From a virus (taxonomy: Duplodnaviria; Heunggongvirae; Uroviricota; Caudoviricetes): a stretch of DNA of 64,000 nt. The DNA lies in the IMG/VR virus record IMGVR_UViG_2531839661_000004; one strand, given 5' to 3'. Made by a program: the position numbers. Shown here in pieces: positions 36,001-42,000 of the stretch (positions within the stretch are counted from its first letter, which is position 1; the number at the start of each line of letters is the position of its first letter).

Positions 36001-39000
36001 TGAACGGAATGAGGTTGCCACCTGGATACTCGAGCCGTGACCAAACAGGATATAGCCACCGCTGGCACCGCTACGACGTTCAACGATGGTGAATGAGGCT
36101 CTCAGCCAGTCAGGGAGATGATCAAACGGTACAGCAATTTTTGTGCGGAAAATTTCACTGGCAGCCTGTTTATCCTGAGCGACGATCCCGCATTTGAGAT
36201 GCGGAATGAATAATGCCTGGTCGAGAAGATAAATATCAATGGCTGTGGAAAATCCCAGCTGGCGCGCTTTCAGGATAATATTTTTATTGTGCATGCTCCG
36301 GAACAACTGGCGCTGCGCCGGTCGCATTCTGAAGGTGACCAGTTCACCTTTTTCGTTCTGTATTTTGTAGAGATGATTGAGCCGCCACCAGGGATTGCTC
36401 AGTTTAGTCATGATGAACAGACGTTGTTCAGCCTCGGTCATTTCTGACGGCTCATCACATCGCGGTTCATTCTTCCGGAATGTCATCCAGTCTCCCCGAA
36501 TTACTCATTTCATGCAGCGATGACACGATGTCACTGACAGGCGTAACAACGCCCCGACGCTGGCTGGTCAGAATATCGGTTTCAGCTCTGAGTTTATCTC
36601 TGGCGGCGTTGATTCTTTCCCGGTCAGCACGAAGTTTTGGTGCTGTCTCAGCCAGGACGTCCAGCGTCAGCAATGAGCGTTCAATTGACTCGATACGGGC
36701 AATATTCCGGTCAAGGGCCTGTTCAGCTTTGAGTATTTTGTCGTAAAGAGCAACACGGGTTTCCACGTCAGTTGCCTCTTCCAGGTCGGCGAACATCCCT
36801 TTAAGTGCCTTAGTTACTGAAAGTGCGCGGGCCCGGGTGAACACCAGTTCATCGAACAGCACCATGTCGGACGCATCATCCATGAGGTTATCTGCCTCAA
36901 GATACTTCGCATATCCACGGTGTCTTACGGCGTGGGTGTTTCGCTGAGAAAAAGCGTTTGAAGGAGGTAAAAGTCGGGAACCACGAATCCGTTTCGTTTC
37001 TGCCGAATTTGCGCAGTTTTTTTCAGAGTTTTTTGCGCATTTTTCATCGCCGGAACCCGCGTCATTGCAGGGTTCTTCATCTGAGATGTCATGATCGATT
37101 TCATGATCGGTTTTATGATCAATTTCATGATCGATTTTGCCCATTTTTATACGGGTTCTGGCGGTGTTGTAATTAATCTTTTTCTTCCGGCACCAGTCCA
37201 GTAATGTTATTCCCGTTTCGGCATGTTCGCGTCGGAATGCCTGCTCCAGCTTTTTCCAGTCCAGCTTTGCCATGTCACGTTCTGACGTCCTGTGTTAAAA
37301 ACTGATGCATAATGACCGCTGTGATTTTTCAGATTTCACACAGCAGCACCATATTTGATCGATATTTGCACAATGCGGTTGTTTTATCCGGTTTCTTCCA
37401 CCACCGCACCGGACAGGCGGCTTCGCGGGAAATCGCTCCCATCTCGTGAAAAATGAGAAAACCCGGTGTGCATCGTTTTTGATTATCCCCGCACACTCAC
37501 GCAGATAAGGTGGCTGCGGTCTCTGTTAATGCGGGAATACGGCGACGATGCGGCGCATGGCTATGTCAGGCTGAAATGCCTTTATCCGTTAAAAAGGATA
37601 TCAATTAAGTTATCCCGTGTAGGGTATAAGCCATTGTCAAGACCACTCATTGAATGGCCTCTGCAATAACCGATGTCTTTCCATCAGTCCGCCACCACAA
37701 AGAATCTTTTTTGCCATAAGGCTGGAGGTTCATCTTTCAGTGGCTGCCAGTGTTATTTCCCCACTTACTGGCTTGGGTTGTTTCGCGGTACTGCCGTTAA
37801 TTGATGAGTCCGGGGATTACGGTTTGCCCGTGCTGTTCAAGGCGTTCAATTCTAGCCAGCAGCTGTGGCTTCTTAATTTTGCCCCAGCGATTTAGCAGGC
37901 GACCTGACATGCTGGCAACATCCTTCTCTTTCATGTACTCCAGCATTACGGCATTTCTCTCTTCTTCAAATTGACGATGACCAACCTGAAGCATGGCGTA
38001 CATCCAGTTAAATGCGTTGATGTAAGCAATTTTGATACGCATTGCTTCTTTTTTGGTGTAGGACATAACCAAAAGCATCAACCCATCCTTGCGGAGACGG
38101 TAGAATTTTTGCGGCTTACCATTCTGTAACTCATTGTTTTTATAGCAAAGCTCAAAGTTGAGCTTTGTATCAAACTCAGGAGGGCAAGCTTCTATGGTTC
38201 GTTCAAGGTCACGAACTACGTTCTTCGGCAGCTTTCCAAATGCTTTTGCCACCATAAAAGAATCTGTAACCGGATCGTTGTTTGCCACAAAAATCAGATC
38301 TCGAAAATCGATGCCGTTAACGATAGTTGGATAATTCATCAGTGCACACCTTTAAGTGATGAACCTTGTCACACAGGATTCCGGCCCACAGAAAGGCACC
38401 GATCACCAAACCGGCATCCTCAAGGGTCATCCTGAAAGGTTCTGTGTTCATAAGTCGCGCGTGTGAAGCGCGTTTACTGCGGACATAAAAAAGCCCCGCA
38501 TCGCGGGGCTCATTAAATGGACTTTGTGATTTGCAAAAAAATTATTTCAGGCATTGCGTCCTGATGTATTCCTGCAGGTAGTTAACCTGCGCGGTTATCT
38601 TGTCGATTCCACTTCTGAGACGGTAATAATTGAGTTCAGCATCTGCTGTAAGTCCTGGGCTTTCTCCATCGCCCATGCTGCTGGCTCCGGTCGTTGACTT
38701 TGCACAGGTGGCGGCGACTTGCAGGCGCTTACGACCAGCAGAAACATCAGCACGGAGACTTTCGATAGTCGCATTAGCATCAGCAAGCTCCTTTGTGTAT
38801 CTGGCGTCAAGTTCTGCTACATCACGTTGCCGCTTCTGCATATCATCGATGATGGATGTGGCTTTATCGCGCTGCTCTTTGTAGGCGATGGCGTTATCAC
38901 GGTAATGATTCAGCCCCAGACTAAGCGCACCACAGCCAACCGCCAGGACAATAATCACCACACACAGAACACGGTTCATCTCTCTTTCACCCCACCAGTC

Positions 39001-42000
39001 CCGATAACGTCAGGACTCGCCAGGCGGTGGAAAAGAAAATGGCAACCAGCATGACTAAAAATGGAATGCCGACGATTACACAGAGGATCTTCGCCAGCGT
39101 TATGAGTTTATCCGATATCATTAGCCACCACTCCATCAATCGCCTTTGTTATTTTCCCTTTGCCTGTATCAGCCAGGACAAAATCAATCAGCAGATTCGC
39201 TTCGTTTATCAATGTGCGGATTTTTGATACATGCGCGGCTTTAACCTGTTTCCACTCATTCAGCCCGGTAGCAAACACACTGGCAATGTTTTTATCCCGT
39301 TTCATGTCAGCGCAAGCCTGATTGAGTTCTTCCATCACACTCATTCGACGGGGATTAACGACAAAACCCTTCGTCCAGTATTCATAGAGAACATCGTCGC
39401 ACTCTTCCTGATACTGAATGACTCTGTCGCGGATTTCAGGTTTAACTTTATTTGGGTTGATGGTTTGCAGCCAGCCAGCAAGTTTACGTAAAGCCAGGCA
39501 GATAACAGGGCGACGTTGGGTATCACCTGGTAGCTGAATGGTCATTTCGACCATGCAGCTATTAAACCGTTGTTTTAACTTGCGATACTGTGTTTTCCAG
39601 TCCAGCCCCACCCCTTCAACGATCGGTTTCATTGGAACATACGGTTCGCCATTATGGTTAACCACATAAAGAGAATCGCCGTGAAACGGCACGGTCATCA
39701 TATTCATCGGTTATTTCCTTTTAGTGATGAACCCTGCGCACAGGAATAACCAGCCCAAAGAGGGTTAACCAGACCAGCCGGTTATCCACCAGGGCTCATC
39801 CTGAAAGGTTCTTTGGTTTATTTACGCTTGTGCGAAGCGCAGAAATGACAAAGGCACCATTACGGTGCCTCTGCGTGAAACAATCTTCCTGACTTTATTC
39901 ACTTGCATTTTGCCAGTTCGCAGGATTTCGTGTTATCCGCCCGCGTGAGCAAGCGTCATTTATCAGAAAAATATTCTGCTTATCTGTCGATTCCCCAGCA
40001 CGCCAGCGCGCTCTCCTGGTCACGACGGGATACCTGACCATAACAGTTATTTGAGCGAATACGGCAGTCCCTGCCACCGTCCTTAATCCACCAGCGAATC
40101 GCTTCGCAGGCACCTTTTCGATCTCCTGCATTAATTCGTTTATAAAACGTCGACGGGAAACACTTACCGGGGCCAATGTTGTAAGGACAGAATGACGCAA
40201 TACCCGCTTTCTGGGGTTCAGTCAGTGGCACTTTGATGTTTTTCGCCACCCATGCCAGCGCCTTATCCCGTTCGATAGCGTTAACCCGGTCGCATTTTTC
40301 CTTCGACAGCTTCATGCCAGGAATCACAGGCTTACCATCCACCCGGGTGGCTCCACGGCAGATGGTCCAGATCCCCGCACCATCACGGTATGCCGTGGTG
40401 TGGTTACCTTCTTTTTCATCCAGAAACTGATCCAGGATTTCAGGCGCAGAAGCCCCTGCGGCAATCAGCGCCAGAACGACAGCTGATAAACCATAGCGGA
40501 ATTTCCGGCTCATCAGCTTACTCTCCCCGCGCCGCCTTACGCCGGTCCTCTCTGATTTTGAAATACAGGTTCGTCAGGTACGTCAGCAGACCAAACAGCA
40601 GACTCCCCAGCACGCCTATTGCCGCCCACTGAGACGGGGAAACCCTGTCCAGCAACTGCAGGAACCAGTAGCCCGTTCCCACCGCTGACGTGGTGTATGA
40701 CACACCTGTTGTGATTTTTTCCATCTGGTACATACCCCGCCTCCCGCAATCCGGAAGCTCACAACAATAAAAAAGACCACCGGCACACACCGATGGTCCC
40801 TGACGCATGCTTACATCATCATGTCGCTGTCAGGTGTGGGGTCACCGCTATCTGAAGCACTCCCCTCACCCGCGATGCCTTCCGGCTCCGGAGCTGCCGG
40901 TGCGCCCAGCAGTTCATCCAGAATGGCATCCACTTCTGCATCAAGACGCGCTTCCAGGTTATGGCGAAGTTTCTGTTTCAGTGCGCTCAGGACTTCTTCA
41001 GAGCGCAGGACGTCCTTCACTGCTTCAGCAGTGACCAGGGATGTAATTTCTGACATGGGATTTTCTCGTCGAAAGGTGTGATTAAGAAAGTTGCCGCTAA
41101 ACGAGCGGCTCTTCGGGTTTGCTTCCGGCTGACTGACTGGCGCTGATTTTCTCAGCGGCCCTTTTGTCAATCTGTCTGCGCCAGAAGTCACGCATGGCCC
41201 GGTATCCACCCGAAAGGAGATACAGCACACAGACCACCGTACAGAAGTACAGCATCACCTGATGAATAAAAGTCATAATTTCTTACCGTTATTGTTGACA
41301 ATAAGAACTGTTTTCATTTAAAAAGCCAATGTACGAAAGTATCGTTCCTTTATTTTTTCTCCATAGGTATTACCACCGCCAGTCCATTCCGGTAACTGGC
41401 GGCTTTTTTTATCATGCCGCGGCGTCCGCGTTATTCACTTCCACCGCAATGCTGTCTATCAGTACCGGGTAAGTCGCACTTTTGGTAATGTCTGTCACAT
41501 GCAACTTATCCGCCGAAAATGCACTGACCGGTGACTGCGTCAGCGTGAACGGTGTGCCATCCTGACCATCAATAACCGGCGTCACCTGAAGGCTGTTATT
41601 CCCGGCAAAGCGGAAAGCCAGCGTATGCCATTCGTTATCAAATGCGCCAAAGCTTCCCAGTTTCAGGTTGTTTGTCGCCACTTTCGCATTGTGGTACATC
41701 ACATTCAGGTCTTTTGCATCTGTCTGGATGTAGAACGCTGCCAGCAGGTTATTCCCCCCGTCTCCGGTCAGGGCAACGCCCTGTGGCAGTGAAGATACCG
41801 GCCAGTAAAACGCCATAACATACTGGTTCGCAGCCAGCGCTCCCGAAGCCTTAAAGCGGCAGCGAATCTGCCCCCCTTTCTGTAACAGAGCCGCACCGTT
41901 GCCTGCAGCGTACTCCAGCACCCAGCTGCTTTTACCGGCTTCCTTGGTCACCTTCACAGCCTTACCTCCGGTTCCCTCCGCATCGCTGACCACTTCTGCC

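Follow-up and report, generated by a model that had tools for sequence, protein, structure and literature searches.

The 64,000-nt stretch of Caudoviricetes DNA in IMG/VR record IMGVR_UViG_2531839661_000004 (the whole stretch is called here the window) carries two copies of a structured RNA element, one immediately 5′ of a Rha-family gene and the other 5′ of a P22 Ant-like antirepressor gene. Each region is a copy of an unannotated family of sense-strand structured messenger RNA (mRNA) leaders of ca. 115–140 nt, which lie between an intrinsic terminator and the start codon and include the Shine-Dalgarno (SD) sequence of the downstream gene. The structural claim, that is, the fold, its strand and its covariation, is strong. 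As to function, the best explanation, and one that we consider rather probable from the sequences, is a cassette restraining or gating the translation of accessory genes in late operons.

Shared sequence upstream of the Rha and Ant-like genes

The preliminary description of the window reported shared sequence 5′ of these two genes, and this was borne out by alignment, by exact blocks and by a covariance model. The upstream regions have a mean column identity of 75% over 250 aligned columns. The similarity spans ca. 135 nt, from a small hairpin (38457–38471 and 39825–39839) through the start codon, and is not confined to the ribosome binding site (RBS). Two exact blocks, GAACCTTTCAGGATGA and GGTTCATCACTnAAAGG (16 and 17 nt), occur only at these two places in the window; with up to three mismatches they have 6 and 3 matches in the window, as against ca. 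0.6 expected from shuffles. A Y/R difference between the copies, within the blocks described at first, turned out to be a compensatory change. The coding sequences had been called unrelated, which holds for their N-terminal domains (Phage_pRha vs. P22_AR_N) but not for their C-terminal ends, since both share ORF11CD3.

A 44-aa open reading frame (ORF) overlaps the Rha leader (38317–38451, minus strand). It ends after five codons in the Ant copy and its start codon is missing in other leader subtypes; it is probably not a gene, and a conserved leader peptide was rejected for the same reason.

A covariance model for the family

An alignment of 11 seeds with MAFFT/RNAalifold misaligned the outer stems, and a hand-drawn structure with iterative covariance models was used instead. 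The initial model contained six close copies; the search set consisted of phage loci and viral contigs retrieved with a pattern for the small 5′ hairpin, and the model was then rebuilt. The final alignment contains 96 matches from phage records and viral contigs, representing 95 distinct sequences. The 80 viral-contig loci of Rha protein relatives were all at least 91% identical to the query and hence uninformative for covariation.

On the minus strand, the window copies score 120.5 bits (Rha) and 88.3 bits (Ant), as against 12.3 bits on the plus strand, and a search of the window with filters off returns the two leaders as the sole matches. The model had no match in phage lambda or in 60 unrelated genome loci serving as negative controls, which are genome contigs with the pattern GCGCNTCNCACGCGC..TTTC, matched by chance in GC-rich genomes. 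A scan of the window with Rfam 15 (4227 models) at gathering thresholds gave six matches, none within 38200–40000, and a permissive scan of that interval (E ≤ 10) gave only sub-threshold, terminator-driven matches to asX2 (32 bits vs. a threshold of 70), rimP and F6. No Rfam family could be assigned to the element, including C4, isrK, AgvB/AsxR, STnc100, twister, pistol and hammerhead.

Secondary structure and coding strand

From 5′ to 3′, the order is intrinsic terminator, small hairpin P0, linker, long interrupted hairpin P1–P4, spacer and AUG (Table 1). In single-sequence folds both copies form the same long hairpin, with the AAAGG preceding the start codon as its 3′ base, and the Ant hairpin has a folding z-score of −4.1. 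The stems of the Rha hairpin are CCTTT/AAAGG, AG/CT, GATGA/TCATC, CCTTG/CAAGG and AGGATgCCGG/CCGGaATCCT, closed by a variable apex. The interrupted helix has ca. 27 bp, and across the family the apex varies from ca. 9 to 27 nt; the leaders of phi80 and HK022 have the same architecture with different stem sequences. A three-way junction at the apex, with a hairpin GCCGGUU..GAUCGGU, was rejected because it conflicts with covarying P4b pairs.

Nested helices were counted on model-fitted alignments of the 95 distinct sequences. Standard pairs occupy 96.5% of the pair cells, as against 81% after shuffling and 35–50% when partners were slid by 1–3 columns, and 30 of the 38 pairs show changes on both sides; the comparison of homologous phages initially proposed as a check on the element therefore finds the pairing kept. 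The P0 stem is 99.7% paired and P1, which joins YCUUU to AAAGG, is 91% paired. G-U pairs are frequent on the sense strand and would be A-C mismatches on the opposite one, indicating that the structure belongs to the gene strand.

Strand also bears on the two modes by which antirepressor genes are classically controlled, an antisense RNA as with P22 sar and LexA as with the Gifsy antirepressors. The conserved blocks common to both genes would suit a DNA operator (LexA-type or repressor-bound) or an antisense small RNA (sRNA) gene of the sar type controlling both antirepressors. However, neither leader contains a LexA-like box (CTGTN8ACAG with one mismatch or fewer), in agreement with the preliminary description; no sigma-70-like promoter was found in or next to either leader on either strand; and the terminator-like sites of the plus strand all lie outside the leaders. 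Moreover, the plus strand scores 12 bits against 120, the G-U pairs exist on the sense strand only, and the element also occurs in front of genes other than antirepressors. Both options are essentially excluded in silico. The original proposal of a common cis-regulatory RNA or operator thus holds for the RNA, which is on the sense strand, covaries and includes the SD sequence, whereas the operator found no support and the suggested search for an antisense sRNA promoter came out negative.

Two covarying pseudoknots

In the first pseudoknot (PK1), the 5–7-nt loop of P0 pairs, and covaries, with the bulge of 5–6 nt by which P3 and P4 are separated. Although it is outside the model, PK1 is 99.6% paired in the 95 sequences; one of its pairs is GC in 59, UA in 25 and AU in 11 of them. 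The family has at least eight loop/bulge combinations, among them UCACAC/GUGUGA (window Rha), CGCAC/GUGCG (window Ant), UCUCAC/GUGAGA, CCGCA/UGCGG, UUCUCG/CGAGAA, CGCCCG/CGGGCG and UUCGCG/CGCGAA.

The second pseudoknot (PK2) pairs 5–8 nt of the linker, adjoining the basal helix, with the 3′ part of the apical loop; these strands are designated K5 and K3. More than 15 covarying strand pairs were found, such as CACAGAA/UUCUGUG (Rha), CCAAAGA/UCUUUGG (Ant), CUCAGAA/UUCUGAG, CGAGAG/CUCUCG, CCCCGAG/CUCGGGG, CCAAGAG/CUCUUGG and CCACAGAG/CUCUGUGG, and two otherwise near-identical leaders have CACCGA/UCGGUG and CGUCGA/UCGACG. The longest Watson-Crick run averages 6.07 with the own partner, compared with 4.06 ± 0.18 when partners are permuted and 3.16 when the neighbouring apex bases are used, and none of 20000 permutations attained 6.07. 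An independent set, drawn only with CTTTCAG..CTAAAAGG and thus with neither pseudoknot constrained, retains both of them with new compensatory variants (UCGCAU/AUGCGA, GUCGCA/UGCGAC, UGCCC/GGGCA and CGCUC/GAGCG for PK1; CGCAGAG/CUCUGCG and CGAAAG/CUUUCG for PK2). With P4 plus PK2 amounting to ca. 15–19 layers and P1–P3 to ca. 19, P4 and PK2 could stack as a second rod alongside P1–P3, which would accommodate both pseudoknots and the SD helix in one fold.

The two window copies carry different, self-consistent pseudoknots, which indicates that each leader folds on itself and is not a site shared for one trans-acting regulator. Neither target is the RBS, because the P0 loop pairs with a bulge ca. 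25 nt upstream of the SD sequence and the linker with the apical loop. Many phages have two leaders per genome, including phi80 (our locus L001, with its second copy at 4140–4255) and contigs L107, L124, L129, L183, L188, L192, L197, L333, L345, L373 and L391. A comparison by eye of nine two-copy cases, namely the window, phi80 and seven contigs, shows that PK1 and PK2 nearly always differ between the copies, the exception being L129, whose copies share PK1 only. Such differences would be expected, judging from this comparison, if copies carried by the same late transcript avoid pairing wrongly with one another.

Twister and pistol ribozymes have a double-pseudoknot topology and are associated with phage genes, and the leader resembles them in both respects. 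A self-cleaving ribozyme of this kind, trimming the late transcript before the accessory genes, is nevertheless extremely improbable, as no Rfam ribozyme model matches at E ≤ 10 and almost no invariant unpaired nucleotides are available for an active site; the weighted consensus retains few of them (GGG after K3, and C and A near P1).

Shine-Dalgarno pairing and start codons

In the first search, 80 of 84 matches directly precede an ORF of at least 40 aa starting within a few nt of the end of the model, and throughout the family the SD motif AAGG(A) is 6–10 nt from the AUG. The predicted unpaired probability of this motif is 0.21, vs. 0.40 for the 250 start sites of the same loci that served as controls (p = 1e-10); accessibility over positions −14 to −6, an interval that misses the SD sequence, did not differ from the controls. 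The family thus has both a conserved SD helix and a fixed site on the mRNA strand right before the start codon, the characteristics of an SD-occluding structured leader. The near-invariance of the YCUUU strand is as expected if matching a functional SD sequence is required.

In two well-known phages the annotated start of rha falls inside the leader hairpin. For P22 rha (orf201; BK000583, our locus L006) it is at position 1076, with an SD-preceded ATG 69 nt downstream (1145), and for phi80 rha (L001) at 2640, with the SD-preceded ATG 36 nt downstream (2676). Both proteins are probably annotated too long, judging from these start sites.

The position of a long helix within an operon would also suit an element of RNA processing, stability or insulation, that is, a target of cleavage by RNase III or RNase E or else a protective structure at the 5′ end, with the accessory message cut from the ca. 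20-kb late transcript or shielded from its upstream context and with translational control secondary. The RNase III sites of T7 and of the lambda N leader are intergenic hairpins with internal loops, and the interrupted helix of ca. 27 bp is likewise intergenic in a long polycistronic transcript. A strong hairpin in front would isolate the leader from upstream RNA, and the leader is found behind very diverse upstream genes. Against this, a cleavage site needs neither the invariant anti-SD/SD helix nor the fixed spacing to the AUG, and a pseudoknot docked at the bulge would be unlike known RNase III substrates. We consider it unlikely that this is what the element is for, although such a role is plausibly compatible with translational restraint.

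Terminator and origin of the transcript

A terminator is present upstream of P0 in 93 of 105 distinct upstream contexts, with a gap of 4–18 nt or, in a few cases, of 46 nt. It is often one and the same sequence, GCCTCGC-N4-GCGGGGC-T6, in unrelated genomic surroundings (including the window, 38491–38511), so that the terminator seems to travel with the leader. The terminator-like hairpin preceding the Ant leader was identified with our own script, the main consensus scan having probably passed over it because of its interrupted T-run.

PK1 needs P0 in the RNA, and P0 can start as little as 4 nt past the T-run, which leaves no room for a conserved promoter belonging to the leader. This, together with the absence of promoter-like sites in the scans above, indicates that the leader RNA arises when polymerase reads through the terminator; a lambdoid late operon would need Q-modified polymerase for this. 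In the window, both leaders and every gene in this part are on the minus strand, and one strand holds all genes from an STnc100 match (43564–43777) to the terminase genes, which follow Rha in transcription order. Terminators within the late operons of P22-like phages are on record, with a role called unknown (PMC8022706).

Flanking genes and distribution

The ORFs downstream of the leader fall into at least eight unrelated clusters. One of these mixes Rha, KilA-N+P63C and P22_AR_N proteins, and others comprise N15 gp59-like proteins (including that of the second phi80 copy), HNH_3, T5orf172/MUG113, small proteins of unknown function and a 485-aa glycosyltransferase-like protein. The shuffled KilA-N/Bro/Rha/T5orf172 group of phage DNA-binding proteins accounts for most of the partner genes. 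ORFs on the same strand upstream of the element group into over 30 clusters, with Rz, endolysin, tail, capsid-like and Q-like genes among them. What recurs as a unit is thus a terminator followed by the leader and an ORF, without specificity for antirepressors; the first interpretation of the element as a device of two antirepressor genes was correct in that it precedes both, but too narrow.

By BLAST, the element is in more than 200 phage records, among them Stx-converting phages, Shigella phage POCJ13, P22-like Salmonella phages, phi80, HK022 and Klebsiella phages, with hosts mainly in Escherichia, Shigella, Salmonella, Klebsiella, Enterobacter and Citrobacter. A single subtype is present in 809 of the 5426 complete E. 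coli genomes, which have up to 8 copies each (typically 5–6 in O157:H7), and in none of them is a feature annotated on it. Leader-like matches were also found in three records with non-enterobacterial labels, MH178096 (Aeromonas phage AsXd-1), OM284015 (Elizabethkingia phage EKP1) and PP818812 (an Actinobacillus phage), one of which is 95% identical to the phi80 copy; they may reflect a truly wider range or mislabelled or contaminating phages. The literature searched does not mention the element, and RefSeq and GenBank records carry no feature for it. A paper on Hfq-CRAC in enterohaemorrhagic E. coli (EHEC) and its supplements do not mention these genes, and a preprint on Pas sRNAs was set aside because its loci sit upstream of the holin gene.

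A conserved cassette beside variable genes at many positions is also what is seen with morons and with the PeSL cassettes of T4-type phages, and the element might accordingly be a DNA-level linker for the recombinational swapping of accessory genes, with an incidental RNA fold. The near-identical terminator and leader in unrelated contexts beside variable genes, the contigs with two copies and the PeSL precedent (PMC2839356) speak for such a linker. Recombination, however, needs identity and not complementarity; dozens of compensatory changes have left the base pairing of the family intact, that of both pseudoknots and the G-U pairs of the sense strand included, and co-resident copies differ at both pseudoknots. 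A linker thus cannot be the sole role, and we hold the fold to be incidental with very low probability; exchange by recombination may be an added consequence of the spread of the cassette.

A model for the leader and its weak points

In the model that we favour, translational restraint by a portable cassette, the leader would be made solely within late transcripts that read through the terminator just upstream. The RNA folds into P0, the interrupted hairpin P1–P4, PK1 (P0 loop with bulge) and PK2 (linker with apical loop); P1 joins the SD sequence AAAGG in a helix with YCUUU, and both pseudoknots would buttress that helix. Folded in this way, the leader would most likely limit how much add-on ("moron") late genes are translated, or make their translation conditional. 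Antirepressor-type DNA-binding proteins, which can harm the phage when over-made, are the products of many of these genes, and terminator and leader together behave as a portable expression cassette placed before many unrelated genes. We infer that SD pairing lowers translation and that the transcript originates by Q-dependent read-through. PMC4936722 states that IHF "regulates the rha gene" and, reporting earlier work, that Rha is harmful when its control fails in IHF-deficient hosts; translational restraint of accessory genes would fit that harm.

Several points weigh against this model. The aligned sequences are related, so that the shuffle controls overstate significance; PK2 was scored with our own best-match script and not on fixed alignment columns; and the coexistence of P1–P3 and PK2 in one conformer is argued from helix lengths alone. 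In members of the P22/HK544 type, the functional SD sequence lies at or just past the end of the stem. The predicted occlusion of the SD motif is moderate (0.21 unpaired), given that P1 has no more than 5 bp and forms the end of the stack. Lastly, throttling of translation would require nothing beyond a plain hairpin, and the double pseudoknot consequently suggests an extra function, such as recognition by a factor.

Complex pseudoknots are found in the S4 alpha-operon leader and in similar protein-operated translational operators. The leader, whose fold is far more elaborate than passive occlusion needs, could by analogy be a switch gated by a factor or ligand, with the fold as an OFF state opened or locked by a protein, an sRNA or a small molecule; an IHF-dependent factor, an HU/IHF-like structure-binding protein, Hfq and ProQ are candidates. 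The rha genes of phi80 and P22, both with the leader, are genetically linked to IHF according to PMC4936722, and IsrK provides the precedent of a prophage antirepressor mRNA whose translation stays off until the mRNA is opened by an RNA (PMC4825925). On the other hand, few unpaired nucleotides are invariant enough for a ligand pocket or a sequence-specific protein site, the apex varies in length (ca. 9 to 27 nt), and the leader DNA contains no IHF consensus (WATCAANNNNTTR). None of the sRNAs detected by Rfam in the window (C4, isrK, sRNA-Xcc1, STnc100 and sok) is complementary to either leader beyond chance. Autoregulation is unlikely, since no protein domain is common to all downstream genes. 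The scarcity of invariant unpaired bases argues against a classical riboswitch or ribozyme, and a shape-recognising protein would still be compatible with the alignment. We regard gating by a factor or ligand, stated in this general way, as improbable. A bolder proposal, to which we grant a small though appreciable chance, is that the double pseudoknot represents a new class of trans-gated translational switches in their OFF state, opened late in infection by a host or phage factor or a small molecule that would license antirepressor-type and other accessory genes.

Comparison with known systems

One of the closest parallels is IsrK/orf45-anrP of Salmonella prophage Gifsy-1 (PMC4825925), where an antirepressor-type prophage gene likewise lies behind an intrinsic terminator and the orf45-anrP read-through transcript is translationally inactive through its structure. 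There, however, a short terminated RNA acts in trans, via an upstream ORF, to open the mRNA. The leader family, by contrast, shows neither sequence conservation 5′ of the terminator nor a conserved upstream ORF, and its double pseudoknot is self-contained; the Rfam isrK model has no match at the leaders. The PeSL of T4-type phages (PMC2839356) and the morons of lambdoid phages are similar in being small conserved intergenic terminator cassettes flanking non-essential variable genes. PeSL and classical morons have their own promoter, whereas the leader cassette has none that was detectable, its terminator is upstream of the gene and it includes a covarying fold with the SD sequence.

The C4 antisense RNA of P1/P7 and relatives (RF01695, clan CL00128) is also a structured RNA just upstream of antirepressor genes and on the same strand, with loops that pair downstream. 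C4 undergoes processing and base-pairs with its target around the RBS, whereas the loops of the leader pair within the same leader; in addition, the leader gives no C4 match and precedes many kinds of genes.

Translation of repZ (repA) of IncI-alpha/IncB plasmids is controlled by a pseudoknot in which an upstream hairpin loop pairs over a long range with a site within an RBS-occluding hairpin further downstream. The IncI-alpha pseudoknot differs in that it activates translation, depends on a leader peptide being translated and is prevented from forming by an antisense RNA; neither a leader peptide ORF nor an antisense gene of the IncI type was found for the leader family. The protein-operated pseudoknot operators of S4/alpha, S15/rpsO and T4 gene 32, and likewise Mu Com/mom, are complex folded RNAs at the translation start of genes that are harmful when over-expressed, some of them late phage genes. 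These are bound by a defined protein, often their own product, whereas the proteins encoded downstream of the leader share no common domain.

As the leaders lack what marks the systems compared (a model match, a leader peptide, an antisense RNA or an own promoter) and have what marks an SD-occluding leader, we classify them as a new family. This family appears to be undescribed, and it belongs to an already known type of regulator, the SD-occluding structured leaders.

Organisation of the locus and other elements in the window

Table 1. Coordinates of the late genes, terminators and leader components in the window.
Feature	Position	Strand	Remarks
Holin gene	40518–40808	minus	first gene listed, in transcription order
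Endolysin gene	39980–40513	minus	between holin and first shared region
Terminator-like hairpin after endolysin	39847–39873	minus	GGCACCGTAATGGTGCC then TTTGTCATTT; upstream of Ant leader; own script
Ant leader region, ca. 135 nt	39705–39842	minus	
Ant P0 small hairpin	39825–39839	minus	CGCTT-CGCAC-AAGCG; loop 39830–39834 (CGCAC) is PK1 5′ strand
Ant K5, CCAAAGA	39810–39816	minus	PK2 5′ strand
Ant long hairpin P1–P4	39717–39808	minus	fold and model match
Ant K3, TCTTTGG	39755–39761	minus	PK2 3′ strand
Ant bulge, GTGCG (five nt)	39737–39741	minus	PK1 3′ strand
Ant SD, AAAGG	39717–39721	minus	also P1 3′ strand
Antirepressor-like ORF (Ant), 199 aa	39108–39707	minus	P22_AR_N + ORF11CD3; AUG 39705–39707
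Rz gene	38542–38979	minus	downstream of Ant ORF; terminator and second shared region follow
Intrinsic terminator after Rz	38491–38511	minus	GAGCCCCGCGATGCGGGGCTT then T-run; consensus scan; 19 nt upstream of Rha-leader P0
Rha leader region, ca. 135 nt	38337–38473	minus	
Rha P0 small hairpin	38457–38471	minus	GCGC-TTCACAC-GCGC; loop 38461–38466 (TCACAC) is PK1 5′ strand
Rha K5, CACAGAA	38440–38446	minus	PK2 5′ strand; directly adjoins basal helix P1
Rha long hairpin P1–P4	38349–38439	minus	single-sequence fold, model matches, pair counts
Rha K3, TTCTGTG	38387–38393	minus	3′ part of apical loop; PK2 3′ strand, complementary to K5
Rha bulge, GTGTGA (six nt)	38369–38374	minus	3′ strand between P4 and P3; PK1 3′ strand
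Rha SD, AAAGG	38349–38353	minus	also P1 3′ strand
Rha-family ORF, 180 aa	37797–38339	minus	Phage_pRha + ORF11CD3; AUG 38337–38339

Known RNA elements also precede antirepressor-type genes at 48275–50079 on the minus strand of the window, where isrK (50003–50079) and C4 (49894–49977) are directly upstream of an Ant-like ORF (49176–49841) and sRNA-Xcc1 (48962–49052) is directly upstream of a second, related Ant-like ORF (48275–48919). The STnc100 match mentioned above is full-length (195 bits, minus strand) and lies ahead of a 646-aa ORF (41412–43352, minus strand), 5′ of the lysis genes. The left part of the window has, on the plus strand, a match to the sok antitoxin RNA (6889–7063, 111 bits) and a further one to sRNA-Xcc1 (3899–3987, 71 bits). 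Outside the leaders, CTGTN8ACAG with one mismatch or fewer occurs 39 times in the window, vs. 21.3 ± 4.5 times in shuffled sequence, with perfect sites at 7717–7732 and 9664–9679.

Significance for temperate phages of enterobacteria

The family is abundant and yet unannotated in the best-studied bacteria and in phages of pathogenic enterobacteria, and its definition corrects the gene starts of P22 rha and phi80 rha. The leader fronts antirepressor-type genes able to influence prophage induction and hence the release of Shiga toxin, and it is a concrete candidate for the site at which IHF and rha are linked, a long-known connection that has lacked a mechanism. Its two covarying pseudoknots are a well-defined target for mutation and structure work, and the compact, context-independent cassette may serve as a natural expression insulator. 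If the leader were a trans-gated switch, it could be the unexplained route from IHF status to the control of rha, and terminator and leader together would be a plug-and-play cassette of expression and insulation for domesticating newly acquired genes in temperate enterobacterial phages.

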